Part shown: positions 9,116 through 23,647 of the stretch, piece after piece
How positions within the stretch are numbered: position 1 is the stretch's first letter
How the letters are laid out: every line of letters starts with the position of its first letter
NCBI GenBank assembly: GCA_965279375.1
Contig: OZ257156.1
Coordinates: 1,120,001-1,184,000 of the forward strand
From: Gemmatimonas sp.
Lineage (GTDB): Bacteria > Gemmatimonadota > Gemmatimonadetes > Gemmatimonadales > Gemmatimonadaceae
DNA length: 64,000 bases
Direction of reading: 5' to 3'
Position numbers and translations under genes: made by a program
Notes under the pieces: model-generated
What the model was told of the DNA's origin: nothing
What the model saw: only the letters and a program-made list of their open reading frames with translations
Database searches by the model: none

Positions 9116-9117
9116 CC

Positions 9118-10335
9118 ATGACCACCGCACATATCTCCCGCACCGCTCGTCGCGCCGCGACGAGCCTCGCGCTGGTCGGCATCGTCGGCGCGCTTTCGGG
9201 CTGCAAGCTCGAAGTCACCAATCCTGGTCCACTGCAGGACACCGATCTCAACACGGCGAGCGCCGTCCCCGCCTTGGTCAACGGCATGGGTGGTGACCTC
9301 TCGAACGCGATGGGCAACTACATCACGCGTGGATCACTTGCTGCGTTCGAGTTGGTGCACTCGGGCAACTTTGCCGCCGAACGCAAGTTCGCGTCCGGGC
9401 AGATCGCGCCTGAAGACGTGAACGGCGATTGGGCGCGCATGCACACCGCGCGCTACGTGGCCGAAGCAGGGCTCGTGCGCATGAAGACGGTGCTTGGCTC
9501 GGCGTTCGAAACGAACACGAATACGCCGCGTGCGTATCTGTACGCGGGCTTCGCCAATCGCTTTCTCGGCGAGAACGTCTGCAACGCGGTCATCGACGGT
9601 GGCTCGTCGTTGCCGAGCAGTGAGCACTTCGTGCGCGCGGAGAGTTTGTTCACGCGAGCGCTGACCATCGCGCGGGCGCAGAACAACACCGCGCTTACCA
9701 ATGCGGCACTGGCTGGACGTGCCACCGTGTTGGCGTGGCAGGGCAAGTGGGCCGCGGCCGATGCGGATGCGGCGCTCGTGCCGGTGGCGTTCCGTCACAA
9801 CGCGATCTTCTCCACGAACACCACGCGTGAGAATCTCGACTTGGCCAACCAGACGATCACGCGTCGTGAAGTGACCGTGTGGAACACCGTGTGGGTGGCC
9901 GATCGCGATGTGCGCACGCCGTACGACACCGTGAAGACGGGAACGGCGATCACGCGCGGTCAGGATGGCGTGACGAACTTCTTCCGTCAGCGGAAGTACC
10001 TCACGCTGGGCGATCCCGTTGCATTGGCCAAGGGAACGGAGATGCTGCTCATCCGCGCGGAAGCAGCGTTGCGCAGCAACAACGTGGCCTCGGCGATGAC
10101 GTTCATCAATCAGGAGCGTGCGACGTTCACGTTACCAGCGTTGACGGCAACGACGGTCGATGCGGCATTCACGATTCTGATGCGTGAGCGTGGCGCGCTG
10201 TTGTGGCTGGAAGGCCGTCGCTTGTGGGACCTGCGCCGCTGGCTGGCCGAGGGTCGCAACACGACGCTGCAAGGCCGGAGCGTGTGCATTCCGATTTCGC
10301 TCGAAGAGCAGGGCGCGAATCCGAATTTGCAGTAG
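9118..10335 (+). CDS. SusD/RagB-family lipoprotein
   Basis: Lipobox LSGC, EMLLIRAEA, ERGALLWLEGRRLWDLRR and C-terminal E..ANPNL. Lies 2 bp after susC. Confidence 0.9.
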   Translation: MTTAHISRTARRAATSLALVGIVGALSGCKLEVTNPGPLQDTDLNTASAVPALVNGMGGDLSNAMGNYITRGSLAAFELVHSGNFAAERKFASGQIAPEDVNGDWARMHTARYVAEAGLVRMKTVLGSAFETNTNTPRAYLYAGFANRFLGENVCNAVIDGGSSLPSSEHFVRAESLFTRALTIARAQNNTALTNAALAGRATVLAWQGKWAAADADAALVPVAFRHNAIFSTNTTRENLDLANQTITRREVTVWNTVWVADRDVRTPYDTVKTGTAITRGQDGVTNFFRQRKYLTLGDPVALAKGTEMLLIRAEAALRSNNVASAMTFINQERATFTLPALTATTVDAAFTILMRERGALLWLEGRRLWDLRRWLAEGRNTTLQGRSVCIPISLEEQGANPNLQ

Positions 10336-10381
10336 CGCATGTGACGTAGCGGTGATGTAGCGCTACGCAGGTAGTGCGCAG

Positions 10382-10434
10382 ACGGCCGGCGATGGATTCG
10401 GGAGCTCACCCGATTCACCATCGCCGGCCGTTTG
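10382..10434 (+). terminator. Hairpin/terminator after susCD
   Basis: 14-bp inverted repeat ACGGCCGGCGATGG / CCATCGCCGGCCGT followed by TTG. Confidence 0.55.
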
Positions 10435-10486
10435 TGCGTGAGGGGTGTCTGCGTGCAGCCTCCTGTCGCCTGGATGGGCGCCGTTG

Positions 10487-10512
10487 GGAACTTCTGTCGG
10501 ACGCGCCGTCTA
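10487..10512 (+). promoter_or_regulatory. ECF-sigma-type promoter upstream of msrB
   Basis: GGAAC-N16-GTCTA, ending about 45 nt before the ATG. Confidence 0.45.
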
Positions 10513-10556
10513 TGACGTGTGCAGGGTACGAGAACCCCAATCTGAGATAGGATCTT

Positions 10557-11153
10557 ATGCGCAGACTGCTATCGAGCCGCACCGTTCTTCCCATGCTGCT
10601 GGCGAGCGCGCTCGCGTCTGCGCCGCACGTGGTGCACGCGCAGTCCGCCAAGCCGCCAATGGCGATGACAACGGCTCCTGCGGCCAAGCCAACCATCTTC
10701 CGCAAGCCGTCCGACGGTGAGCTGAAGCGACTGCTGACACCGATGCAGTATCAGGTCACGCAGCACGAGTCCACGGAGCCGCCGTTCCGCAACGAGTTCT
10801 GGAATCACCACGAAGCGGGCATCTACGTCGATGTCGTTTCCGACGAGCCGTTGTTCAGCAGCACCGACAAGTACGAATCGGGAACCGGCTGGCCCAGCTT
10901 CACCAAGCCGATTGCGTCAACAAACGTTCGCACCGTCACCGATCGTCAGCTGTCTGAAGAGCGCACCGAGGTGCGATCGCGGCTGGGTGATTCGCATCTC
11001 GGGCACGTGTTCGACGATGGCCCGCGCCCTACCGGCTTGCGCTACTGCATTAACTCTGCGTCGCTGCGATTCATTCCGGCCAGCGATCTCGAGAAGGAAG
11101 GCTACGGCCAGTACGCCAAGCTCTTCGTTGGACTGAAGCCAAAGAACAAGTAA
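10557..11153 (+). CDS. msrB: Peptide-methionine (R)-S-oxide reductase MsrB with signal peptide
   Basis: [15 protein letters not shown] and RYCINSASL motifs. N-terminal signal ends in VHA. Confidence 0.95.
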
Positions 11154-11165
11154 AGACCGGCGCGA

Positions 11166-11777
11166 TCATTCGCCCCTGACGTCGAGCCCCATCGCCATCG
11201 CGATCGTGATGGCCTGCTGATAATCCACGATCGCGCCGGTGAGCGTCACGCGTGCGGGCTCGACGGCGCTGAGATCGCTGCCTCGCAGATCCGCATCGGT
11301 GAAGTCGGCACCATTGAGCGACGCGCAGGCCAAGTCCACGCTGCGCATACTCATGCCTCCGCAGCGTGCGTCGCTCAGATCGACTTCGCGCAATCGCGCA
11401 TCTGCAAAGCGCGCCTTTCGCAGGTCGGCTCCGGCCAACTGCACGAACGACCAGTTGCCGCCGCTCACCTTCATGAGATCGAAGCTGCAGCGATCGAACT
11501 TGCTCCCGACGAACTTGCACTCGGTGAAGCGGGCGTCGAAGAAGTTGCAGTTGGAGAAGCGGCAGTTCACAAACGCGGCATCGGTGTGCGCGGAGATATT
11601 GAACTGCACGCCGCGGAAGGTGCAATCGGTGAAGACCGCGCCGTTGTTCACCGCCTCGGTCATGTCGATGTCCACGAACGCCACCCGTGTGTGCGTCTCG
11701 CCGCTGATGTCGCGCCCTTCCCAGTTTGCGCCGCTGACAGTGGAATCGGTTGTTGGCGAATTCCCGGCGTTGCTCAT
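11166..11777 (-). CDS. Pentapeptide-repeat protein, MfpA-like
   Basis: Tandem [A/C/S]xFxx / ADLRG pentapeptides and a C-terminal 'GAIVDYQQAITIAMAMGL' helix. The ATG overlaps the nhaA stop (ATGA). Confidence 0.85.
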   Translation of the reverse strand: MSNAGNSPTTDSTVSGANWEGRDISGETHTRVAFVDIDMTEAVNNGAVFTDCTFRGVQFNISAHTDAAFVNCRFSNCNFFDARFTECKFVGSKFDRCSFDLMKVSGGNWSFVQLAGADLRKARFADARLREVDLSDARCGGMSMRSVDLACASLNGADFTDADLRGSDLSAVEPARVTLTGAIVDYQQAITIAMAMGLDVRGE

Positions 11778-13138
11778 CTGGATGGACTCGAGGGTGTGCC
11801 GGAGGATGCGTTGAGCGAGCGTAGCAGCAGATAGCCGACGAGGCCCGCGCAGCCGCTGGCAGTGAGTACGGCAAGCTTGGCGATGTCGAGCTGCTCCGCC
11901 GACGTGAACGCCAGTCCGGCCACGAACAGCGACATCGTGAAGCCGATCCCGCCTAACCATGCAACGCCATGCAGCTGCTTCCACGACGCGCCCGTGGGCA
12001 GGTCGGCGGCACCGATGCGCACCGCGATCACGCTCGCCAGGGTGATGCCGATCGGCTTGCCCAACAGCAGCCCCATCGCGGCGCCAATGGCAATCGGATT
12101 GGTGGCAGCCGCTGCCAGATCCGATCCCAGCGAAACACCCGCGTTGGCCAAGGCGAAGATCGGCATGATGCCAAAGGCGACGACGCTTTGCAGCGCGTGC
12201 TCCACCTGCTGCAACGGCGACTGGGCCGCGTCGGCCGCGCTCTCGAGCGCCTGCAGTGCGCTCTGATGCCCCTGATTGGACAGGACCGTCGTACCGGGTT
12301 CATCGGCCGCGCGAAAATCGGCGAGGCTCGCTTCGGCCGACGCGAGAAACTGGTCTTCGGAGATTCGCGTGCGGGCGGGCAGCATGAGCGCGAGCAGCAC
12401 GCCGGCAATCGTGGCGTGAATGCCCGACTTGAGCATGAACAGCCACAGCACCACGCCAAGCAAGGCGTAGGTGGCCGGACGACGTGCTCCTGCGCGATTG
12501 AGCGCGAACAGCGCCAACAGCACCAGCGCGGCTCCGCCCAGCGCCGCCCAGTCGATCGCGCTGGTATAGAACAGCGCGATCACCAGCACCGCCCCCAGAT
12601 CGTCGGCGATGGCGAGCGCAGCGAGAAACACGCGCAGGCTGGTCGGCACACGGTTGCCGAGTAGCGCCAGAATTCCCAGCGCAAAGGCGATGTCCGTGGC
12701 CATTGGGACGCCCCATCCCGCCGCACCGGGTCCACGCGCATTCACGCTCGCGTACAGCAGCGCCGGCACGATCATGCCACCGAGCGCCGCTGCGACGGGC
12801 AGCGTGGCCGACCGACGCGACGACAGCTCGCCCACGAGGATCTCGCGCTTGATCTCGAGCCCAACGAGCAGAAAGAACACGGCCATGAGGCCGTCGTTGA
12901 CCCAGGCGTGCAGCGGGAGTGTCAGGCCGAACGACGGCGCGCCGATGCTGACCGGCGTCTCCCAGAGGTGATGATACGACGCGGCCCATGGCGAGTTGGC
13001 CCAGCCGAGCGCGACCGCCGTGCATGCCAGCAGCACCAGACCGCCGGCGGCGCTGGTGGCAAAGAAGCGTTGAAACGGTCCGAGTACTCGCTCGACGAGC
13101 GGGCGTGAACCGGGCATGCGTGCGGGAGCCGTGGACAT
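11774..13138 (-). CDS. nhaA: Na+/H+ antiporter NhaA
   Basis: WVNDGLMAVFF, GLEIKRE, PMATDIAF, LAIADD and GIGFTMSLF motifs. Confidence 0.96.
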   Translation of the reverse strand: MSTAPARMPGSRPLVERVLGPFQRFFATSAAGGLVLLACTAVALGWANSPWAASYHHLWETPVSIGAPSFGLTLPLHAWVNDGLMAVFFLLVGLEIKREILVGELSSRRSATLPVAAALGGMIVPALLYASVNARGPGAAGWGVPMATDIAFALGILALLGNRVPTSLRVFLAALAIADDLGAVLVIALFYTSAIDWAALGGAALVLLALFALNRAGARRPATYALLGVVLWLFMLKSGIHATIAGVLLALMLPARTRISEDQFLASAEASLADFRAADEPGTTVLSNQGHQSALQALESAADAAQSPLQQVEHALQSVVAFGIMPIFALANAGVSLGSDLAAAATNPIAIGAAMGLLLGKPIGITLASVIAVRIGAADLPTGASWKQLHGVAWLGGIGFTMSLFVAGLAFTSAEQLDIAKLAVLTASGCAGLVGYLLLRSLNASSGTPSSPSR

Positions 13139-13219
13139 GGGAGGTGAAATCTATTGCTGGGCACTCGCCGGTGATGAAGCGCACGACCGCGTGGCGACGC
13201 ATTGCGCATCTTTCTGTCT

Positions 13220-14389
13220 ATGCGAGTATCCGCATCGGTTGGGCTACTACTTACTCTCGTCGCGGCGCGCGTCCTGCCGGCACAGCGCCCGGACATGCGC
13301 GACTCGGCCATGGCGGCCGCTGCGAGCACAGTGCTCACATTCGATCACTTCGCCGAGCGTTGCGCGCGCGGCAAGCCGATTGCGGGCAAGGACTCGACGA
13401 TTGTTGCGACGTGGGTCAGCACGCAAGGCGTGGAGTTGGTGCGGACACGGCTGCAGGAGCTGGCTGGCGATGCGTCGCAGCAACCGCTCATCGCACAAGC
13501 GCGCGCCGCGATCGTTCAGCGCTACGGCACGATGAATTTCCTGAGCTGCCGTGCGATGGTGCAGGTGACCAGGCAGCCCGACGCCCAGTTCGCCAGCACG
13601 TCGCCGCAACTGCTGCGGGCGCTGCGGGCGCCAGCGATGGTCGCAGCTTCCAGCACACCGGTCGGCGCTCCCGATACCGCCGTGAGTGCGACCAACACGT
13701 CATCGACATCGAACGCGTCATCGAGCGCGTCATTGCAGGCGTCAGCGGACGCGTCATCGTCAACACACGCGGCGCTCCTTGCGCGCATCGAAGGCTTTGC
13801 GTTCGACACGCGCCCCAAGATGGGCATGGGCGGTTTCATCGCGCTCGACATCTATCCCATCGTGCTCTTTCACAACGGCGAGGTGCTGACCGATGTGGAA
13901 GGACTCTCGTTTCGCGCGGGGCTCGATGCGCACAAGCGCGCTGAACCCACGCTGTGGACCCGATGGCGCCGTACGGGTCGATCACTCGAGATCGTGAAGG
14001 ACGGACGATGGGACACGCTCGAGTTTCCGACCATCTACTCGAGCGTACCCGCTGGATTTCGACTGCAAGGACTCTTTCGTAGCACGTCCGGCGTGGGCAA
14101 CGTGGCGGTGGGCGGCACGCAAAGCGTGACCGCGTGGAATGAGTTCCGCTTCTCCAACGATGGTCGCGTGCAACGCGGCGGTGGCGCGGGATCGCGTGCG
14201 GAAGCGGGCGGCACATCCGTGGTGACCAGCGCGGTCGCTGCGAATCGTCGCGGCACCTATCGCATCGATGGGCTCGAGCTCGTGATCAGCTACGACGATG
14301 GCTCGAGCGACCGGCGCATCTTCATCACCGACCCCGCCAAGCCGACGGTGATTTGGCTCGACGGGGTGAGTTATGTGCTGCGAAAGTAG
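13220..14389 (+). CDS. Secreted hypothetical protein
   Basis: Signal peptide, Ser/Ala-rich linker and a beta-rich C-terminal region. No family recognised. Confidence 0.7.
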   Translation: MRVSASVGLLLTLVAARVLPAQRPDMRDSAMAAAASTVLTFDHFAERCARGKPIAGKDSTIVATWVSTQGVELVRTRLQELAGDASQQPLIAQARAAIVQRYGTMNFLSCRAMVQVTRQPDAQFASTSPQLLRALRAPAMVAASSTPVGAPDTAVSATNTSSTSNASSSASLQASADASSSTHAALLARIEGFAFDTRPKMGMGGFIALDIYPIVLFHNGEVLTDVEGLSFRAGLDAHKRAEPTLWTRWRRTGRSLEIVKDGRWDTLEFPTIYSSVPAGFRLQGLFRSTSGVGNVAVGGTQSVTAWNEFRFSNDGRVQRGGGAGSRAEAGGTSVVTSAVAANRRGTYRIDGLELVISYDDGSSDRRIFITDPAKPTVIWLDGVSYVLRK

Positions 14390-14422
14390 GCGCTTGCTTC
14401 AGCGCTTGATTCAGCGCGTGGT

Positions 14423-15454
14423 TTAACGCTCGCTGTCCAGCATGCGCATCTGGTGCGCGTCGTAGCGTGTGCCGCTCACGGTCGCCGCGATCGCCTCCAT
14501 ACGCGCGAAGTCGTCGGCAGTCAGTGTGACCGTGAGTGCCGCCAGTGATTCCGCCAGCTGCGCGCGCGTGCGTGCACCAATCACCGGCACGATGTCGTCG
14601 CCACGGCTCAGCACCCACGCAATCGCCGCCTGCGTCATCGACACGCCCTTGGCCGTCGCGATCTCGCGCAGGGCGTTCACCAACTCGCGATTGCGTTCAC
14701 CACTCTCGCCGGCAAAGCGCGGCAGGTGCGTACGAAAGTCTTTCGCGTCGCTCGGGATCGATCCTGACAACAGTCCCCGCGACAGCACGCCGTACGCAGT
14801 CACGCCGATCCCGAGCTCGCGCAGTACGGGCAGGATCTCCGTTTCGACCGAGCGACTGATCAGCGAATACTCGATCTGCAAATCCGCGATCGGATGCACC
14901 GCGTGCGCACGTCGGATCGTATCAGCCCCCACTTCGGACAACCCGATGGCGCGCACGTATCCCGCCTTCACGAGATCAGCGATGGCACCGATCGTGTCTT
15001 CAATGGGCACCGCCGGGTCGAGACGGGCCGGGCGATAAATGTCGATGTACTCCACGCCCAGTCGGGTGAGCGTGTGTGCGAGCGCGTTCCTGATGGCCAC
15101 CGGGCGTGTGTCGATGCCGATCCAGCTGCCGTCTGGTCCGCGCAGCGCGCCGAACTTGACCGACAGCAATGCGTCGTCGCGCCGCCCCTGCAGTGCCCGG
15201 CCAATCAGCAGCTCGTTCCTGCCAATGCCATAGAAGTCGCCGGTATCGAGCAGCGTCACGCCCCGTTCCAGGGCCTCGTGAATCGTGCGGATGCTCTCGG
15301 CGTCGTCGCTGACGCCGTACATCCCGGACATACCCATGCAGCCGAGGGAGATGGGGAAGACGGTCGGGCCGGTGGCACCGAGTTGGCGCGGGACGTGGGC
15401 GGCGGCGATCGAAGAATCGGGGGAGCGCTGGGTCGCTGCGTGTGAAGAAGTCAT
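14423..15454 (-). CDS. Aldo/keto reductase
   Basis: LGCMGMS, DTGDFYG, IGLSE, LQIEYSL and PVIGART motifs. Confidence 0.92.
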   Translation of the reverse strand: MTSSHAATQRSPDSSIAAAHVPRQLGATGPTVFPISLGCMGMSGMYGVSDDAESIRTIHEALERGVTLLDTGDFYGIGRNELLIGRALQGRRDDALLSVKFGALRGPDGSWIGIDTRPVAIRNALAHTLTRLGVEYIDIYRPARLDPAVPIEDTIGAIADLVKAGYVRAIGLSEVGADTIRRAHAVHPIADLQIEYSLISRSVETEILPVLRELGIGVTAYGVLSRGLLSGSIPSDAKDFRTHLPRFAGESGERNRELVNALREIATAKGVSMTQAAIAWVLSRGDDIVPVIGARTRAQLAESLAALTVTLTADDFARMEAIAATVSGTRYDAHQMRMLDSER

Positions 15455-15520
15455 GGAGCAACCATATGGACTCACAGTATCCTGTGGCAACAAGGCGCCC
15501 GAAAGTGCTATACTCACCTT

Positions 15521-15949
15521 ATGGATACTGTGAACTTGGCCTCGAAAGACGAGGCGCTCTCCGGACCGGGCTCCATGGCCGAGCGGCAGTTGGACATGGC
15601 GCGGGAGCTGTTGTCGCGCGTGGCGGACAAGTGGACGCTGCTCGTCATCGAGGCGCTCGAGGACGGCAAGCCACGGCGCTTCAGTCGGTTACAGGAGACG
15701 GTGCACGGCATCAGCCAGAAGATGCTGACCAAGACGCTGCGCCAGCTCGAGCGCGACGGGCTGGTCGTGCGGCGGGTGCATCCCGTGATCCCGCCGCACG
15801 TGGACTACCAGCTCACCACACTTGGCCATTCGCTGGGCGAGGCGGTGTGCGGGGTCTGGCTGTGGGTGGCCGCGAACGCGGAGGCGGTGGAGCGCGCGCG
15901 GCTCGAGTTTGGCCGTCGTGAGATCGGCGCGTCGCCGGCAGCCGACTAG
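15521..15949 (+). CDS. HxlR-family winged-helix regulator
   Basis: DKWTLLVI, ISQKMLTKTLRQLERDGLV and PPHVDYQLT motifs. Divergent from the AKR gene. Confidence 0.92.
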   Translation: MDTVNLASKDEALSGPGSMAERQLDMARELLSRVADKWTLLVIEALEDGKPRRFSRLQETVHGISQKMLTKTLRQLERDGLVVRRVHPVIPPHVDYQLTTLGHSLGEAVCGVWLWVAANAEAVERARLEFGRREIGASPAAD

Positions 15950-15965
15950 ATCCGCCGCAGCAGAG

Positions 15966-16002
15966 AAAACAAAGCGGCGCCCGCGATTGACGCGGGCGCC
16001 GC
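15966..16002 (-). terminator. Intrinsic terminator for the BLUF gene (left islet hairpin)
   Basis: 12-bp perfect stem GCGGCGCCCGCG-ATTGA-CGCGGGCGCCGC followed by TTTGTTTT on the minus strand. Confidence 0.75.
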
Positions 16003-16019
16003 AATTGTCTCAGTCGATC

Positions 16020-16541
16020 TTATCGGACGGCCTTTCTCGTCGCCTTCCGACCTTTCGTCACCGTGGCCGGAACAACCACGTCCGGCGTCACCCGGACCTC
16101 GAGCGATGCCGCGTGCGCCCGCTCGATGGCCGCGAGGTCAGTCAACAGTCCGATCGCCTGCTTGGTCGACATCGCCAGCGGTTCGAAGGCGCGTCCTGAC
16201 ATCCGCACCGCCACCGCCTCGCGGCGCTTCGGCGCGAACGGTTCATCGAGACTGATCATCTTCATCGACCATTCCTCGAAGCTGCGCGTGCGGATTACCG
16301 CATAGCTCAGGATTTCCGCGCCATTGTGCCGCTGATCGCGAAGGATCTTGGCGTAGATCGCATTGACGGCATCGCGCGGGCCTTCGAGCAGCTGCAGAAA
16401 CGAACCGTTTCCGTGCGCGAGGATCCCGCTCACGCCGCACTCGGCGTTCGCGATCTTCGCCTGCCTTCGAATACTCATTAGATCCGAAATGTGAAGGCCG
16501 GGCCGTGCGGCACTTGCATAGACCAGACGAATTAGTGGCAT
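16020..16541 (-). CDS. Stand-alone BLUF-domain blue-light photoreceptor
   Basis: RLVYAS, N32, SGIL, FLQLLEG, DQRH and FEEWSM motifs. Photoactive residues Y8, Q50, W91 and M93 are all present. No effector domain. Confidence 0.92.
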   Translation of the reverse strand: MPLIRLVYASAARPGLHISDLMSIRRQAKIANAECGVSGILAHGNGSFLQLLEGPRDAVNAIYAKILRDQRHNGAEILSYAVIRTRSFEEWSMKMISLDEPFAPKRREAVAVRMSGRAFEPLAMSTKQAIGLLTDLAAIERAHAASLEVRVTPDVVVPATVTKGRKATRKAVR

Positions 16542-16549
16542 GCTGTGTG

Positions 16550-16576
16550 GTATCGGCCGCTTCCGGCGAAACTGGA
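16550..16576 (-). promoter_or_regulatory. sigma28 (FliA)-like promoter of the BLUF gene
   Basis: TCCAGTTT-N11-GCCGATAC versus the consensus TAAAGTTT-N11-GCCGATAA. The ATG lies 8 nt downstream. Confidence 0.55.
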
Positions 16577-16613
16577 GTGAATACTCCTTAACGCGTTCGC
16601 CCGGAATACTGGC

Positions 16614-16641
16614 TAAAGATCTGGGACGAAGTGGTCGAGAA
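16614..16641 (+). promoter_or_regulatory. sigma28-like promoter of the che operon
   Basis: TAAA-N16-GTCGAGAA just upstream of cheA. Confidence 0.45.
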
Positions 16642-16647
16642 TAGGCG

Positions 16648-18978
16648 TTGAGTCGAATTCTTCGCTTTATCGGGACCAAGGGCAAGGACGATCTCCTTCG
16701 GGATTTCTTGACAGAGAGCGCGGACAATCTGGGACGGCTCGACAACGATATTGTCGAGCTGGAGCGACACCCGGGTGACATTGCGCTCCTCAATAGCGTC
16801 TTCCGAACGATTCATACCATAAAGGGCACATGCGGCTTTCTCGGCCTGGTTCGGCTGGAAGGCGTCGCGCACGTCGCCGAGAATGTGCTGGACCGCCTGC
16901 GGGCAGGTCAGCTGACGAGCAACCCCGAGCTGATCGGCGACGTCCTCGCCGCAATCGACTGCATCAAGTACGTGTTGCATCAGCTCGAGCAGACGGAGTC
17001 CGAGCCTGAAGGAGACGATCGCGCGCTGATGGCGCGTCTCGATCGCTGGCTGACCGCTGCGCAGGACACGCCCCCTGGATCAGTCGCGCCGCCGAGCGTC
17101 ACGCCCGCCGCCGTCGCCGGGCCGAGCGCCAATGGCGGAGACCCAGTCGCGCCGACGCCATCCGTGCCTGCGCACGCCAATGCCGCAGCTCATCAGAAGA
17201 CAACTCGCACCGAGTCCAACGCCGCCGTGACCGCCGAACACAACGACCATCCCGAGCACACCGAGACGCGTTCTGCGGTGGCGGACAGCTCGCTGCGCGT
17301 GGGCGTCGGCCTGCTCGACACGCTGATGAATCTCGTTGGCGAGTTGGCCCTCGGTCGCAACCAGTTGCTGCAACTGGCGAGTGCGAATGAGGAGTCGCCC
17401 TTCGCCAAGCCGGTGCAGCATCTCGATCGCGTGACGACCGATCTGCTCGATGCGGTCATGCGCACCCGGATGCAACCGATCGGCAATGCGTGGACCAAGT
17501 TGCCGCGTCTGGTGCGCGACCTCTCGCAGTCGAGTGGCAAGCAGATCACGCTCGTCATGCATGGTTCGGAGACGGAACTCGATCGCCAGATCCTTCAGGC
17601 GATTCAGGATCCACTTACGCACATGGTTCGCAACTCTGCTGATCACGGCATCGAGTCGATCGCTGCGCGCGTCGCCGCTGGCAAGCCCGAGGGCGGTACG
17701 GTTCGCCTGAGTGCCCGGCATGAAGGCGGCCACGTGGTGATCGAGATCGTCGATGATGGTGCTGGAATCGACGCAGGAAAGGTGCGTCGCAAGGCAGTCG
17801 AGCGCGGACTCATTCGCGCGGACCTCGCGGATTCGATCCCCGATGCACAGATGCTGCGCTTCATCTTCGAGCCCGGCTTCTCGACCGCCGAGACCATCAC
17901 GAACGTCTCCGGCCGCGGTGTCGGCATGGATGTCGTGCGCAGCAACATTGAAGCGATCGGCGGCACGGTCGAACTGCAGTCGCAGTTCGGACGCGGCACG
18001 ACCGTTCGCGTGAAGATCCCGCTCACCCTCTCGATCATCTCGGCGCTGCTGGTGGGCACGGCCGGTGAAACCTTCGCGGTGCCGCAGATCGGCATCGTGG
18101 AACTGGTCTGTGTCACCGACGAACAGCGCGTACTCGTGGAGACCGTGCACGGCGCGAAGTTCTTCCGCCTGCGCGACACGCTGTTGCCGATGGTCTCGCT
18201 TCGCGAGTTGATCGGTCTCGGTGTCTCGGACGAGACACTGACGAGCAACATCGTGGTCTGTCAGGTCGGCGATGTGCGATTCGGCCTCGTGGTCGAAGAC
18301 GTGTTCGACACGCAGGAGATCGTGGTCAAGCCAGTCGGCCGTCTCATCAAGCACCTGCAGGCATACGCTGGCTGCACCATCACGGGCGACGGCCGCGTCA
18401 TCATGATCCTCGACACGACCGGCATCGCCACGGTCGCGGGCGTCGCGACCAGCGAATCGCGCGACGAAGCGGCCATCGCCGCAGAAGCAGCGGAGCGACT
18501 GCGCGTCACCAACGCGGAGAGCGACGTGGAAAGCATTCTGCTCTTCGACGCCGGCTTTCCGGCGCTGCAGGCCGTCCCGCTCGCGCTGGTGGCGCGCCTC
18601 GAGGAGTTCGCCCAATCGGCGATCGAGGAGATCGACGGACAGTTCCTCGTGCAGTACCGCGGCGCGCTCATGCCGATCGTGCCCGCGAATCCGTCGCTCG
18701 ACATGCGCGCCAAGGATCCGCGCCCGGTCATCGTCTTCAGCGACCGCAATCGCATCATGGGACTCGCAGTCGATGAAATCCGCGACATCGTCGAAGATCG
18801 CGTGTTGCTGCAGCGGCGTGGCACCCGGCCGGGCATTCTCGGCGTCTGCGTGATCGCCGAACGGGCAACAGAGATACTCGACACCGACCACTTCCTTCGA
18901 TTCGCGCATGGCATGGACCGCGAGCGCGACGCGTCTGACTTTCCCGAAATCGCGGCGGAAGAGGTAACGAGCCTATGA
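16648..18978 (+). CDS. cheA: Chemotaxis histidine kinase CheA (Hpt-dimer-HATPase-CheW-CheW)
   Basis: FRTIHTIKG Hpt, HMVRNSADHG, DDGAG, GFST and SGRGVGMDVV motifs, and two CheW-like domains. Start codon is uncertain. Confidence 0.95.
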   Translation: MSRILRFIGTKGKDDLLRDFLTESADNLGRLDNDIVELERHPGDIALLNSVFRTIHTIKGTCGFLGLVRLEGVAHVAENVLDRLRAGQLTSNPELIGDVLAAIDCIKYVLHQLEQTESEPEGDDRALMARLDRWLTAAQDTPPGSVAPPSVTPAAVAGPSANGGDPVAPTPSVPAHANAAAHQKTTRTESNAAVTAEHNDHPEHTETRSAVADSSLRVGVGLLDTLMNLVGELALGRNQLLQLASANEESPFAKPVQHLDRVTTDLLDAVMRTRMQPIGNAWTKLPRLVRDLSQSSGKQITLVMHGSETELDRQILQAIQDPLTHMVRNSADHGIESIAARVAAGKPEGGTVRLSARHEGGHVVIEIVDDGAGIDAGKVRRKAVERGLIRADLADSIPDAQMLRFIFEPGFSTAETITNVSGRGVGMDVVRSNIEAIGGTVELQSQFGRGTTVRVKIPLTLSIISALLVGTAGETFAVPQIGIVELVCVTDEQRVLVETVHGAKFFRLRDTLLPMVSLRELIGLGVSDETLTSNIVVCQVGDVRFGLVVEDVFDTQEIVVKPVGRLIKHLQAYAGCTITGDGRVIMILDTTGIATVAGVATSESRDEAAIAAEAAERLRVTNAESDVESILLFDAGFPALQAVPLALVARLEEFAQSAIEEIDGQFLVQYRGALMPIVPANPSLDMRAKDPRPVIVFSDRNRIMGLAVDEIRDIVEDRVLLQRRGTRPGILGVCVIAERATEILDTDHFLRFAHGMDRERDASDFPEIAAEEVTSL

Positions 18979-19472
18979 GCGCCGGAAAGACGAAGGACTC
19001 CGTCGCATCGACAACGACCGATGCGCATGCAGTCGAGCACGCGGAGTACGTGACGTTCCGCCTGGCAGACCAGTGGCTTGGCATACCGGTCATGGGCGTG
19101 CAGGAGGTGCTGACTTCGCAACGCGTGGCACGCGTGCCGATGGCGCCAACGGCGATCGCCGGCTTCCTCAACTTGCGCGGACAGATCGTCACCGCGCTCG
19201 ATCTGCGGAGCACGCTCGGACTCGCTGCGCGCGGGCCGGATGATGAGGTAATGAATGTCGTCGTGCGCCACGAAGGCGAGCTCTTCGCGTTCATGGTCGA
19301 CGAGGTCGGTGATGTCGTGTCGGTCACCAACCAGTCCGTGCAGCCGACACCGGCCAGCCTCGACGCGCGTTGGCGGGCCGCCAGCGTGGGCATCGTACGA
19401 CGCGAGCATGACCTGCTGCTCGTGCTCAGCGTCAATGAAGTGATCCGGCTCGAACACGTGGCTGTCACGTGA
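18975..19472 (+). CDS. cheW: Chemotaxis coupling protein CheW
   Basis: VQEVL and GFLNLRGQIVTALDLR motifs. ATGA overlap with cheA. Confidence 0.95.
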   Translation: MSAGKTKDSVASTTTDAHAVEHAEYVTFRLADQWLGIPVMGVQEVLTSQRVARVPMAPTAIAGFLNLRGQIVTALDLRSTLGLAARGPDDEVMNVVVRHEGELFAFMVDEVGDVVSVTNQSVQPTPASLDARWRAASVGIVRREHDLLLVLSVNEVIRLEHVAVT

Positions 19473-19570
19473 CGACCTGAAAAGCACCTCACAACGGCCG
19501 GTGCGATGCTGCCCGGTTGCACACACTTTCCGCCACTCAACGTACACGCCTCAATTTCATAACTACCGCC

Positions 19571-21322
19571 ATGCCGACCGCGAAAACCACTCCGAAGTCG
19601 TCCCGCCCCACTCCTGCTTCAAGCGACAAGCCTCGTATCGAGAAGGCAACGCCGTCCGCGCCGACGCCATCGCGCCGTCGGGACTCCGCAGGACGTGACG
19701 CCGCCGATGAACTCGGACGGAACGTCGCGGAGCTTGAAGCGGTTGTTGCTGCCATCGGGCAATCGATGGCCGTCATCGAGTTCGATCTTGATGGCACCGT
19801 GCTCACTGCGAATGACAACTTCCTCGGCGCTCTGGGCTACACGCTGCCGGAGATTCAGGGCCAGCACCATTCGATGTTCGTGGACGAAGCGGCGCGCAAC
19901 AGCGACGCCTACCGCGCCTTCTGGGCCAAGCTCAATCGCGGCGAGTTCGATGCCGGCGAGTACAAGCGCATCGGCAAGGGCGGACGTGAGGTGTGGATCC
20001 AGGCCTCGTACAATCCGGTCCGCGATCGCGAAGGCCGTCCGACGAAGGTCGTGAAGTTCGCCACCGACATCACCAAGCAGTCGCAGCTCATGGCCGACTA
20101 CAGCGGACAGATCGCCGCCATCGGTGCGTCGAACGCGGTGATCTCGTTCAATCTCGACGGCACCATCGTCGAGGCCAACGACAACTTCCTCGGGCTGCTG
20201 GGATACCGGCTGGACGAAGTGCAGGGCCGCAAGCACAGCATGTTCGTCGATGACGCTGAGCGCAACGGCACGGAGTACCAGGAGTTCTGGGCCAAGTTGA
20301 ATCGCGGCGAGTTCCACGCCGGCGAGTACCGGCGCATCGGCAAGGGCGGCAAGGTTTGCTACATCCAGGCGACGTACAACCCGATCCGCGATCGTGATGG
20401 GAGGCTGGTCAAGGTCGTGAAGTACGCGACCGATGCAACGGCGATGGTTGCGCTGCGCGCCAGCATGCAGAAATTCCAGGCCGACGCCGTGCTCTTGGCC
20501 GATGGCTTTGAGTCCACGGTTGCCGCGATCGCCGGTGTGGTGAGCGCGTCGTCGACCGAACTCGAAGCGAGCGCGCAGGGCATGGCCGCCTCCACCGAAG
20601 AGACGACGCGACAGGCGCAGGCCGTCGCGGCCGCCTCCGAGCAGGCGACGCGCAACGTGCAGACTGTCGCCAGTTCTGCGGAGCAGCTGACCGCGAGCAT
20701 TCGCGAGATTGCGAGCCGCGTACAGGAAGCGTCGTCGATCTCGCAGATCGCGGTCCGCCAGGCCAATGAGACGTCGGAAACGATGGCCAAGCTCGGGATC
20801 TCGAGCCAGGAGATCGGTCAGGTCGTCAAGGTGATCACGTCGATCGCGCAGCAGACCAACCTGTTGGCACTGAACGCGACGATCGAAGCCGCGCGCGCTG
20901 GCGAAGCGGGCAAGGGCTTTGCAGTCGTGGCGAACGAAGTGAAGGAACTGGCCCGTCAGACGGCCCGCGCGACCGAGGAGATCGGCAGCAAGATCGCCGG
21001 TGTGCAGTCAGAGACTTCGCTGGCCGTGCAAGCCATTCGCGACATCACCGGCGTCATCAACAAGATCAACGAGATCTCGACGACCATCGCCGGTGCGGTC
21101 GAAGAGCAGAACGCCGCGACGAGCGAGATTTCACGCAACGTTGGCGAAGCGGCACGTGGCACCGCCGAGGTCAGCTCGAGCATCGCGATGGTCACGCAGG
21201 TCGCGTCGGAAGGCGGACGCACAGCGGAGAGCATCAAGTCGGCCGCGGGCGGTCTCTCGGTGGAATCCGAGCGCCTCAACAACGCGGTGCGTGAGTTCCT
21301 CGGTCAGCTGCGCAAGGTCTGA
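19571..21322 (+). CDS. Soluble methyl-accepting chemotaxis protein with two PAS/PAC domains
   Basis: Two repeats of ANDNFL..LGY...E.QG..HSMFV...[10 protein letters not shown]...IQA.YNP and the signalling tip [30 protein letters not shown]. No TM helix. Confidence 0.93.
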
Positions 21323-21330
21323 CCGCCACT

Positions 21331-21696
21331 ATGAAGCGCATACTGGTAATCGATGACTCGGGCGCGATTCGCAAGGCGATCCGCCGCATTCTCGAAGGGT
21401 TGTCGTACGAGGTGATGGAAGCGGAAGACGGGCAGAAGGCGCTCGATGTGCTGTTGTCCGGTGCGCAGTTTCAGGCGGTGCTGTGCGACATCGACATGCC
21501 GAACATGGACGGTCTCGAGTTTCTCGGGGCCGTCTCCAAGCGAGGCGTCCTCGCGCCGCCGATCATCATGTGCACCACGCATACGTCGTTCGACAAGATC
21601 CAGACCGCCATCACGCTCGGCGCGACGGAATACATCATGAAGCCGTTTGACGCGACCATCATTTCTTCCAAGCTCGAAGCCTGCGGGGTTGCATGA
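21331..21696 (+). CDS. cheY: Chemotaxis response regulator CheY
   Basis: Single receiver domain (VIDD, CDIDMPNMDG, CTT, MKPF) inside the che operon. Confidence 0.9.
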   Translation: MKRILVIDDSGAIRKAIRRILEGLSYEVMEAEDGQKALDVLLSGAQFQAVLCDIDMPNMDGLEFLGAVSKRGVLAPPIIMCTTHTSFDKIQTAITLGATEYIMKPFDATIISSKLEACGVA

Positions 21697-22793
21697 CTAA
21701 GACCCCGGACGCAATCCGGGTGATGATTGTCGATGACAGCGCGGTGATCCGCGGCGCGTTGGGCCGCATTGTCGATGAGCAGCCGGATATGCTCGTCGTC
21801 ACCACCGCGCCGAACGGCAAGGTTGCACTCGATGCGCTCAAGCACAGCAAGATCGACGTCGTGTTACTCGACATCGAAATGCCGGAGATGGATGGGCTGA
21901 CGGCGCTGCCAAGAATTTTGGCGGAGTATCCGGCCACGCGTGTGATCATGGCGAGCAGTCTCACACAGCGTGGTGCGGAAGTGACCATGCAGGCGTTGTC
22001 GATCGGGGCGGCAGACTTCATTGCCAAGCCGGCGGCGAAGGCCGGGTCAGCGACGTTGGTAGCCATCAGTACGGAGATCGCCAGCAAGGTGCGTGCGGTC
22101 GGCCGCGCGGCGCGCGGGCGCACGGAAACGCGCCCGGCGGCCAGCAAGTCCGCCGCGCCGGTGCGCACCGAACTGCTCGCATCGCGTGGTCCCGTTGCCG
22201 TTCCCCGCCTCGTTGCCATCGCATCGAGTACCGGTGGACCGAACGCGCTTTCGACGGTGCTCAGCGCCCTGCCCAAGACGTTCCCACTGCCGATCCTGAT
22301 TACCCAGCACATGCCCGCGGTGTTTACGACACTGCTGGCGCAACGACTCGAACGCGACACCGGGCGGACATGCATCGAAGCCAACGACGGCGACGACATT
22401 CGCGCCAACGTGACTTATATCGCTCCAGGCGGATTTCACATGGTCGTGCAGACCAACGAAGGCGTGCCGTACATCCGGCTCAGCGAAACGGAACCCGAGA
22501 ATTACTGCCGCCCGTCCGCCGATCCGATGTTCCGGTCGATCGCCGCGATCTACGGTGCGTCCGCCATCGGCGTGGTACTGACAGGAATGGGTGTGGACGG
22601 TATGCGCGGCTGTCAGCAGGTGAAGGAACGCGGCGGACGTCTCGTGGTGCAGGATGAGGCCACGAGCGTGGTGTGGGGCATGCCAGGCGCAGTGGTGCAG
22701 GCCGGCCTCGATCCAGTCGTCGCGCCCGTCACCGAAATCGGCAAGACCATCCTGAACTGGTGCTCGAACAGTGCCGGAGCGATCGCGGCATGA
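21693..22793 (+). CDS. cheB: Chemotaxis methylesterase CheB
   Basis: REC domain plus ASSTGGP, QHMP, RPSAD, LTGMG.DG and SVVWGMP motifs. Confidence 0.96.
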   Translation: MTKTPDAIRVMIVDDSAVIRGALGRIVDEQPDMLVVTTAPNGKVALDALKHSKIDVVLLDIEMPEMDGLTALPRILAEYPATRVIMASSLTQRGAEVTMQALSIGAADFIAKPAAKAGSATLVAISTEIASKVRAVGRAARGRTETRPAASKSAAPVRTELLASRGPVAVPRLVAIASSTGGPNALSTVLSALPKTFPLPILITQHMPAVFTTLLAQRLERDTGRTCIEANDGDDIRANVTYIAPGGFHMVVQTNEGVPYIRLSETEPENYCRPSADPMFRSIAAIYGASAIGVVLTGMGVDGMRGCQQVKERGGRLVVQDEATSVVWGMPGAVVQAGLDPVVAPVTEIGKTILNWCSNSAGAIAA

Positions 22794-23647
22794 TCACCCC
22801 GGACGAATACGCTTTCATCGAAGCGTTGCTCAAGAAGCACAGTGGCTTGTCGCTCGGTCCGGGCAAGGAGTACCTGCTCGAGAGCCGGTTGCCGCCGGTG
22901 GCCGTCACCTATGGGCACGCCGACGTCAATGCGTTGATCGCGGCGATGCGCCGCACAACGCCGCCGGCGCCGTTGGTGAAGCACGTGTGCGACGCGATGA
23001 CGACCAACGAGACACTCTTCTTTCGCGACAACAAGCCGTTCGTTGCGTTGGAGAAGGAGATTCTGCCGGCCGCGGCGCAGCGTGCGCGTGCACTCGGGCG
23101 ACCGCTCCGCATTTGGTGCGCCGCAAGCTCCACCGGGCAAGAACCGTATTCCATCGCGATGATCGTCGCGCAGACAGAGCATCTGCTCGGCGGAACGAAG
23201 GTCGAAATCACCGCGACGGATTATTCGGCAGCAGCGTTGGCTCGCGCCAAGGCCGGTGTCTACAATCAATTTGAAGTGCAGCGCGGCTTGCCGATCCAGT
23301 TGATGATGAAGTACTTCACGCAGGTGCCGGAAGGCTACGCCATCAAGCCCGAGATTCGGCAGCGTGTGACGTACCAGGAGATCAACCTGCTGGATCCGTT
23401 TCCATCGTACTGGCAGTTCGACATCATCTTCTGCCGCAACGTGCTCATCTACTTCGACGTGCCCACGAAGAAGGATGTGATCGACCGGATGGCGCGTTTG
23501 CTCACCCCCGGCGGCAGCATGTTCCTCGGCGGCACCGAGAGCACGCTCGGCATCACGGACTCCGTGGTACGTGTGCCGAACAATCAATCGGGGATGTTGT
23601 GTCGTCCCAGTGAAGTGGCCATGCACGCGACGGCCGTCGCGGCTTGA
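22790..23647 (+). CDS. cheR: Chemotaxis methyltransferase CheR
   Basis: TTNETLFFRD, WCAASSTGQEPYSIAM and FCRNVLIYF motifs. ATGA overlap with cheB. Confidence 0.96.
   Translation: MITPDEYAFIEALLKKHSGLSLGPGKEYLLESRLPPVAVTYGHADVNALIAAMRRTTPPAPLVKHVCDAMTTNETLFFRDNKPFVALEKEILPAAAQRARALGRPLRIWCAASSTGQEPYSIAMIVAQTEHLLGGTKVEITATDYSAAALARAKAGVYNQFEVQRGLPIQLMMKYFTQVPEGYAIKPEIRQRVTYQEINLLDPFPSYWQFDIIFCRNVLIYFDVPTKKDVIDRMARLLTPGGSMFLGGTESTLGITDSVVRVPNNQSGMLCRPSEVAMHATAVAA

Follow-up and report, generated by a model that had tools for sequence, protein, structure and literature searches.

The 64,000-nucleotide stretch of DNA analysed here (the window; Gemmatimonas sp., assembly GCA_965279375.1, contig OZ257156.1, positions 1,120,001 to 1,184,000) encodes a stand-alone BLUF photoreceptor head to head with a complete chemotaxis operon, which lies on the plus strand in the order cheA-cheW-MCP-cheY-cheB-cheR (MCP, methyl-accepting chemotaxis protein). 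A BLUF gene beside a che cluster is already known from the Gammaproteobacteria; what is new is a conserved divergent block of seven genes that includes a dedicated cytoplasmic receptor. An earlier reading of the window, made from the sequence only, had proposed that this BLUF protein feeds blue light into the Che pathway, perhaps through the PAS receptor or CheA. The conservation of the block, and the finding that its operon is a second Che system, support a blue-light input into this pathway well at the level of comparative genomics; the proposal as a whole is plausible and partly supported, while binding to the receptor or to CheA is still inferred.

The evidence for the conservation of the block comes from three surveys. 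BLUF protein matches were found in 17 of the 401 genomes of our phylum sample, the window's genome included. The three best matches outside this genome (G135, G349 and G224, from two genera of one family) each have a BLUF gene divergent from an orthologous cheA-cheW-MCP-cheY-cheB-cheR operon. A species-level scan of bacteria and archaea, with one genome per species, returned 80 BLUF loci, ten of which contain the divergent block (two of the ten are the G224 and G349 contigs). Eight of these ten are labelled Gemmatimonas, Gemmatimonadaceae or Gemmatimonadota, one is labelled 'bacterium' and one is a metagenome-assembled genome (MAG) labelled Vulcanimicrobiales. A scan of metagenomes gave 51 BLUF loci, 12 of them with the block. 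The adjacency is thus not unique to the window's genome, since it recurs in 23 other loci, i.e. 11 species-representative genomes (the ten and G135) and 12 metagenome contigs, some of which may share species with the genomes counted. None of the remaining 70 BLUF loci of the species-level scan has a cheA match in its flanks (from less than 1 kb to 10 kb), so the linkage is, as far as these sequences tell, specific to a lineage and not general across phyla. The neighbourhood conservation considered in the earlier reading, for Gemmatimonadota and for other phyla, therefore holds in the former and was not found among the other loci scanned.

Only the seven genes of the block stay together: the genes outside it vary between lineages on both flanks. 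The che-linked BLUF proteins are 37-55% identical to that of the window, against 57-80% for the Che proteins, which indicates that the adjacency outlasted a long divergence. The distances do not bear out the idea that the MCP sped up together with BLUF: the ratio of window-to-others over others-to-others distances is 0.81-1.18 in the MCP regions and 1.35 in BLUF. In a tree of 64 full-length BLUF sequences (with SH-aLRT support), all 23 che-linked rows, including the window, fall into a single Gemmatimonadota clade of 39 rows (SH-aLRT 93). The che-linked label changes five times on this tree, compared with a mean of 19.1 changes in shuffles, and none of 500 shuffles was as low. The recurrence of the block, the reshuffled flanks and the tree rule out that the genes are adjacent by chance. 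The closest relative of the window BLUF (54-55% identity, same C-terminal tail) is encoded in L048, a 1776-bp contig of the Vulcanimicrobiales-labelled MAG; this contig carries a Gemmatimonas-like cheA start, and a binning error or gene transfer are both possible.

Other BLUF genes of the phylum have other settings. A paralogous clade of nine rows (SH-aLRT 97), which includes the second BLUF of the window's own genome, is never che-linked. In three of its loci (L032 in G256, L033 in G264 and L036 in G135) the gene lies between a methylmalonyl-CoA mutase gene and genes for a B12-binding subunit and a carboxyltransferase; the neighbours of the own-genome paralogue (L001, G000:C1:2198042-2198473) differ from this arrangement. 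G256 also encodes a distant BLUF (30% identity) within a same-strand che cluster (L046, G256:C1:2536500-2556499, approximately 6224-19231, minus strand). The order there is a paralogous cheA, cheW, a PAS-PAS MCP, cheY, cheB, cheR, cheX, a GAF-PAS-HD-GYP gene and the BLUF gene, followed by genes for a GAF-PAS histidine kinase, a receiver protein and a receiver-GGDEF protein. Judged by its gene content, this is an independent second BLUF-che arrangement, apparently tied to genes for cyclic di-GMP (c-di-GMP) turnover.

The window's BLUF gene (16020..16541, minus strand) encodes a stand-alone protein of 173 aa. Its open reading frame (ORF) matches Pfam PF04940 over profile positions 1-92 of 92 (E 2.3e-27; 95.4 bits, cut-off 25), and this is the sole Pfam family matched, i.e. 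there is no effector domain. Residues Y8, N32, Q50, W91 and M93 are present, and all 12 che-linked orthologues compared keep them; from the BLUF literature, we take them to be the photocycle residues (the flavin Tyr and Gln, the Met and Trp of strand beta5, and the Asn). Pfam, the ORFs and the invariant residues thus confirm the earlier description of a 173-aa BLUF with these five residues beside the che operon, 106 bp away. Among solved structures, the best match is TePixD (1X0P; E 9.7e-26, residues 2-137), followed by Synechocystis PixD (SyPixD, 2HFN; E 1.7e-21), with far weaker matches to BlrB, AppA and BlsA. An AlphaFold2 model (pLDDT 84.7, from a 12-sequence alignment) has a core of approximately residues 3-97 with strands at 3-12, 38-44, 47-55, 72-83 and 94-97 and helices at 18-35 and 56-68, and therefore the beta-alpha-beta-beta-alpha-beta-beta fold. 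The core is followed by two C-terminal helices (104-113 and 126-150) and by a basic tail (152-173) that is predicted to be disordered; this tail, of approximately 22 aa, is common only to the sister sequence L048. Foldseek searches with the model put PixD chains first (target-normalised TM score 0.89-0.94, root-mean-square deviation 1.4-1.8 A), and the top matches are all BLUF proteins. As the best matches in both sequence and fold are PixD, the two C-terminal helices included, sequence and model alike place the protein among the PixD-type short BLUF photoreceptors. A look-up in the ESM Atlas returned BLUF-only clusters alone.

The operon encodes a full Che pathway: a CheA with its domains, CheW and an MCP, a CheY with its conserved residues, CheB and CheR. 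The cheA gene (16648..18978, plus; 776 aa when counted from a TTG codon, with an uncertain start) has Pfam matches to P1 (Hpt), P3 (H-kinase_dim), P4 (HATPase_c) and P5 (CheW-like) domains and to a second CheW-like domain, and the domain search detected no P2; the protein is 62-79% identical to its orthologues. It is followed by cheW (18975..19472, plus; 165 aa; assigned by Pfam) and by the MCP gene (19517..21322, plus), whose product has a low-complexity N-terminus, two PAS domains and an MCPsignal domain in Pfam. We found no HAMP match (Pfam) and no transmembrane segment (hydropathy) in this MCP, which makes it a soluble receptor with PAS domains, as are Aer/AerC/Aer2-like receptors. Its PAS region is nearest to MmoS (3EWK, E 3e-14) and to the PAS domain of Aer (8DIK, E 6e-10). 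The orthologous MCPs of L028, L029, L050, L052 and L057 have 690-715 aa, compared with 601 here (approximately 90-115 aa longer), and tblastn shows an additional PAS-like repeat in orthologous MCPs, so that the window's receptor seems to be one PAS domain short. Downstream, cheY (21331..21696, plus; 121 aa) encodes a single receiver domain (Pfam) in which the conserved D8, D9, D53, T82 and K104 supply the acidic pocket, the phospho-acceptor Asp and the Thr and Lys of an intact phosphorylation site, and cheB (21693..22793, plus; Pfam, 205 bits) encodes a receiver and a methylesterase domain. The last gene, cheR (22790..23647, plus; Pfam, 189 bits), lies in an ORF that opens at a GTG codon at 22673, but its likely start is the ATG at 22790, because this codon overlaps the stop of cheB in an ATGA; the orthologues align with the long ORF only from its residues 24-41 onwards. 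The same ATGA overlap of stop and start occurs at cheA/cheW and cheY/cheB. Pfam searches found no CheZ, CheC or CheX in the operon and no gene for an output enzyme, c-di-GMP enzymes included, in the seven-gene block.

The window's genome encodes three CheAs. One belongs to a cluster with fliD, fliS, flgM, cheY, cheW, cheR, cheD, cheX and cheB. Another, the third cheA, has a P2 domain (L129, G000:C1:3495000-3514999) and is followed by cheC/cheX-like, TPR and PATAN (DUF4388) genes. Since the flagellar che cluster and this third cheA are elsewhere, the window operon is, by its gene content, a second and self-contained Che system. Four other genomes (G135, G224, G349 and G302) also encode three CheAs each, with one FliM, and in these four, as in the window's genome, the distance from one of the CheA genes to fliM is 30-55 kb. 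The receptors differ as well. The maximal 19-residue Kyte-Doolittle hydropathy of the window MCP is 1.65, compared with 2.0-3.0 in 11 of the other 13 MCPs of the genome (the remaining two are also low, at 1.23 and 1.03). Relative to these 11 main MCPs, seven residues are missing and another seven inserted around the hairpin of the window MCP, the hairpin sequence itself differs and there is no C-terminal xxLxxF tail. Because helix register, hairpin and tail differ, the sequence of the window MCP fits a separate, dedicated array. Two further MCP genes (G000:C1:3132562-3135040 and 3117089-3118746, one of them soluble by hydropathy) are found 14-17 kb from pufL/M.

The divergent intergenic region (16542..16647) spans 106 bp from the BLUF ATG at 16541 to the cheA TTG at 16648, as described before, but its cheA end is uncertain, because an AAG replaces the ATG of the orthologues. 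At least nine orthologous cheA genes start with ATG-GAC-GAC (MDDLL...), and the codon aligned to this ATG in the window is AAG (16684-16686). The sole canonical in-frame start is the TTG at 16648, directly past a TAG codon and 5 nt past a -10-like element. The 5' leader of cheA in relatives is missing here (16642-16690), and the intergenic span is 141-236 bp in nine relatives against 106 bp in the window. The window sequence is reproduced exactly over 16400-16900 by contigs from four runs, all of one sample that may be the source of this DNA.

Both sides of the divergent region of relatives keep a motif T(C/A)AAGT-N14/15-(N)CGA(N)A, which resembles a sigma-28 promoter; on the cheA side of L048 it reads TAAAGT-N14-GCCGATAC. 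We built a position weight matrix (PWM) from 13 such sites in relatives and ran it on the window's genome, where it gave 36 sites of at least 18 bits, compared with five in a reversed-sequence control. (A loose sigma-28 regular expression matched 37 places in the genome and 17 in the control, and the PWM was used in its place.) In the window, the cheA-side site is TAAAGA-N15-TCGAGAAT (16614..16642, plus; 18.5 bits) and the BLUF-side site is TCCAGT-N14-CCGATACC (16549..16576, minus; a weak match at 12.9 bits), whose -10-like element ends 7 nt upstream of the BLUF ATG, a position kept in relatives. The PWM also places sites directly upstream of the flagellin gene (21.9 bits) and of six MCP genes among the other 13 (15.7-24.1 bits), and the flagellar region contains a FliA/WhiG sigma factor gene (214 bits, cut-off 189.6). 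A scan of 15800-16900 for the sigma-70 consensus found no promoter. These sequence data support, but do not prove, that the module belongs to the late flagellar (sigma-28/FliA) regulon. Given this promoter type and the Aer/MmoS-like PAS domains of the receptor, the photo/redox-taxis module of the earlier reading is plausible on sequence grounds.

At the other end of the BLUF gene, an intrinsic-terminator-like hairpin (15974..16002, minus; 12 G-C pairs, then a run of T) lies directly past the stop codon, which suggests that BLUF is transcribed as a single-gene unit. The G+C content at third codon positions (GC3) of the gene is 0.75, compared with 0.77-0.81 in the adjoining genes (the G+C content of the window is 0.63-0.69), and on this similarity a foreign origin of the gene was rejected. 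The gene is convergent with that of an HxlR-type regulator (15521-15949, plus), which is itself divergent from an aldo/keto reductase gene (14423-15517, minus); this pair was not found beside BLUF in other lineages.

The block is found in phototrophic Gemmatimonadaceae. We scored reaction-centre L/M genes (PF00124) above the cut-off in the 401 sampled genomes and found them in 20. The nine block-bearing genomes in which we searched for pufL/M (four in the phylum sample and five reached through the loci) all have them. In the window's genus, the eight genomes with a reaction centre are exactly the eight with BLUF, and the other eight have neither; these genomes are kin, and the match is a pattern, not a statistical test. 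In the whole sample, 11 genomes have both, six have BLUF only and nine have the reaction centre only. The operon type is also found in non-phototrophic relatives that lack BLUF and have other sensor domains. From these distributions, the BLUF appears to be an accessory that brings light input to a redox- or oxygen-type Che pathway in bacteria with bacteriochlorophyll reaction centres. The MCP sensors of the BLUF-less operons include PAS-PAS, globin-PAS and cases with no PAS match. The closest orthologous operon without a BLUF (CheA 65% identical) is that of G302, which has no reaction centre either; its MCP is of the globin-PAS kind. In this operon (L130, G302:C19:225000-244999) the CheA frame is very long and ends in a receiver domain, and cbb3-type oxidase genes lie beside it, which suggests an oxygen-sensing version of the pathway.

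Several known systems resemble parts of this arrangement. In Spongiibacter nanhainus CSC3.9, the available part of the published account places a BLUF gene (I6N98_15960) immediately upstream of a che/motAB cluster and reports that its deletion abolishes the blue-light induction of che genes and alters migration in soft agar (PMC8805636). The earlier claim that no BLUF wired to a Che pathway has been characterised was therefore overstated. As far as that part of the account goes, it describes no direct contact of BLUF with CheA, an MCP or CheY (PMC8805636). As in the window, the BLUF gene adjoins a chemotaxis cluster, but the organism is a gammaproteobacterium and the cluster is large and contains motAB (4 kb and 33 kb are omitted in the published figure). 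The evidence seen there concerns transcripts, and it includes no description of a conserved divergent block of seven genes; our comparison rests on that description rather than on sequence. We found no link between BLUF and chemotaxis in Gemmatimonas or other Gemmatimonadota in the open-access papers that our search covered.

In cyanobacterial phototaxis, the parts of the accounts available to us describe PixD (Slr1694) and TePixD (Tll0078) acting with PixE, a PATAN-REC protein (REC, receiver domain) with which they form a complex (PMC11181946; bioRxiv 10.1101/2021.06.11.447907), PATAN being DUF4388 (bioRxiv 10.1101/2021.06.11.447907). These PixD proteins share with the window BLUF the short form and two C-terminal helices, and they are its best sequence and fold matches. 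As far as these accounts show, PixD-PixE also has a partner encoded next door, a signal passed by protein binding and an effect of light on directed motility. The differences are that the window's neighbour is a whole set of CheA, CheW, MCP, CheY, CheB and CheR, with no PATAN-REC gene nearby, that the predicted output is flagellar and not type IV pili, that the host is a gemmatimonadote and that the protein has the additional disordered basic tail. As the defining PATAN-REC partner is absent, the gene content indicates that this is not a PixD-PixE system.

Other parallels concern how light or redox signals enter a pathway. PapB of Rhodopseudomonas palustris is reportedly a stand-alone BLUF that acts on PapA, the product of an adjacent gene. 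A similar logic is seen in G256, where the BLUF gene is flanked by those of an HD-GYP protein and a histidine kinase; the window's block, by contrast, has no c-di-GMP enzyme. In Pseudomonas aeruginosa (Che2/Aer2) and Azospirillum (AerC), a dedicated Che cluster has a single soluble receptor with PAS domains. Like them, the window operon encodes a full set of Che proteins with one cytoplasmic PAS MCP and stands apart from the flagellar che genes; it differs in the attached BLUF gene, in gene order and in the absence of CheD. In the pairs of sensory rhodopsin and Htr transducer, a photoreceptor signals to an MCP that drives CheA. Photoreceptor and receptor can also be fused: domain annotation in a preprint, in the part of it available, indicates BLUF-MCP proteins in Achromatium, and 12 PYP-MCP fusions have been tabulated (PMC12826048). 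Compared with the rhodopsin pairs and these fusions, the window's sensor and MCP are separate soluble proteins whose contact is presumed.

Our tentative reading, held at somewhat less than even confidence, is that the BLUF protein binds a protein of the adjoining Che pathway, most probably in the array of MCP, CheA and CheW, and so feeds a blue-light signal into this pathway. Blue light would alter the C-terminal surface of BLUF, which would dock on or leave the cytoplasmic receptor array and so change the autophosphorylation of CheA; the level of phosphorylated CheY would shift, and CheB and CheR would adapt the response. A flagellar output is predicted because the module shares its sigma-28-like promoter type with the flagellin and MCP genes. 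We favour the receptor array as the target because the input would then pass through the CheB/CheR adaptation that is always kept in the block, because the MCP is where the input differs among related operons and because fusions of BLUF or PYP to MCPs are reported elsewhere. We are more guarded about the scenario taken as a whole, in which CheA is gated by a soluble BLUF docked on a cytoplasmic array of chemoreceptors, with flagellar blue-light avoidance or seeking in bacteriochlorophyll-containing Gemmatimonadota as the result; it is possible, but doubtful in its entirety.

A number of observations weigh against the tentative reading of a BLUF that binds the array. Many genomes of the phylum have the same operon order without BLUF. 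Conversely, che-linkage can be lost while BLUF stays: L141 and L143 have one identical BLUF sequence, inside the che-linked clade and sister to L148 (SH-aLRT 99), with no che genes in the 10 kb on each side of the former or in the 1.5 kb upstream of the latter. (The neighbours of these two genes mostly encode proteins without a Pfam family.) The docking surface is not visibly che-specific, because paralogues without a che link share the motifs of the C-terminal helices. BLUF is the fastest-evolving protein of the block, with a mean Kimura distance of 0.69 compared with 0.12-0.44 for the Che proteins. No fused, longer relative of BLUF was found at E <= 1e-5, and hence no BLUF-Che fusion, which is weak evidence. 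The weak BLUF-side promoter match counts in the same direction, and the CheA kinase of the window may be poorly made because the orthologues' ATG start is absent. Finally, PixD, the closest solved homologue, binds a receiver-domain protein and not an MCP, and the receiver-fused CheA orthologues, together with the receiver-GGDEF protein of G256, fit non-flagellar outputs.

These last points lead to alternative explanations. A light input could be real and the output something other than taxis, as in Che systems with alternative functions (e.g., c-di-GMP, biofilm or development). This is unlikely, yet it would account for the operon being the second of three CheA systems, in genomes where a canonical CheA lies close to fliM and the canonical che cluster accompanies fliD, fliS and flgM, for the orthologous CheAs with a C-terminal receiver (L030, L057 and L062), for the association in G256 of a paralogous che operon and a BLUF with HD-GYP and receiver-GGDEF genes, and for the lack of CheZ, CheC and CheX. 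It fits less well with the promoter motif shared with flagellin and six MCP genes, with the absence of an enzyme output gene from the block or with the stand-alone CheY, which keeps an aromatic residue at the switch position, Y101. We take this residue to be equivalent to Y106 of Escherichia coli CheY from its spacing to K104, not from an alignment with the E. coli protein. A slightly less likely possibility is a sequestration like that of PixD-PixE, in which BLUF would hold CheY or another receiver (in CheB, or fused to CheA in some orthologues) in darkness and let go of it under blue light, so that the amount of free response regulator changes and the receptor plays no part. The similarity to TePixD and SyPixD extends over the full length, C-terminal helices included, the operon always has a single-domain CheY with an intact phosphorylation site, and the PixD-PixE complex splits in blue light, according to the accessible parts of its descriptions (PMC11181946; bioRxiv 10.1101/2021.06.11.447907). 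Yet no PATAN-REC partner is encoded near BLUF (1.136 Mb): the two PATAN matches of the genome, both at 3.51 Mb by the third cheA and 4 kb apart, are approximately 2.4 Mb away. An action on CheY would, moreover, bypass the adaptation set kept in the block. A prediction of the complex of BLUF (residues 1-146) with CheY scored 0.00 and 0.00, which, without controls, speaks neither for nor against binding. In a mirror-tree comparison of 13 loci, BLUF distances correlated best with those of the MCP signalling domain (r 0.77) and CheA P1 (r 0.76), and least with the MCP PAS regions (0.35 and 0.45) and then CheY (0.48, third lowest of ten; partial r -0.24); the weak correlation of CheY is unfavourable to sequestration, but we give the comparison no weight, as its 78 pairs are not independent, its power is low and it is confounded by shared descent and by the PAS repeat matched.

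The coupling could instead be transcriptional and involve no contact with the Che proteins, with BLUF controlling che expression through a DNA-binding partner or being merely co-expressed with the operon from the divergent promoter region that they share, which we judge about as improbable as sequestration. Short BLUF proteins do act on transcription regulators, as in AppA-PpsR, BluF-BluR and BlsA-Fur. The genes are divergent, relatives have similar sigma-28-like sites on both sides, and in Spongiibacter blue light raises che transcripts only when BLUF is present, to judge from the part of the report available (PMC8805636). But no regulator gene is kept in the block (the HxlR-type gene is absent beside BLUF in other lineages), and co-expression does not require strict adjacency through such divergence and change of context. 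It is very improbable that the neighbours have no common function, i.e. that BLUF has an unlinked target and that the adjacency comes from inheritance or a shared regulon. The linked set does lie within one family-level lineage, so that the 24 loci are not independent events, and a related BLUF persists without che neighbours in L141 and L143. Against this, the seven genes stayed together while both flanks were reshuffled, G256 has a BLUF-che cluster that is built differently, and the paralogous BLUF clade has a conserved neighbourhood of its own, so that BLUF genes move and this lineage of them stays by cheA.

Short BLUF proteins are common and few have a known partner, and a route from flavin photoreceptors to flagellar chemotaxis outside cyanobacteria is largely unknown. 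The conserved block narrows the candidate partners of this BLUF to six proteins, and its presence in phototrophic Gemmatimonadota, some with complete genomes, makes a direct biochemical test possible. It also suggests a role for a spare Che system, a kind that is unexplained in many bacteria. If the preferred reading is true, the docking of BLUF on the array would be the BLUF counterpart of the pair of sensory rhodopsin and transducer, and would give a light behaviour undescribed for Gemmatimonadota, connecting the sensing of light with behaviour in phototrophs that have only recently been recognised as a group.

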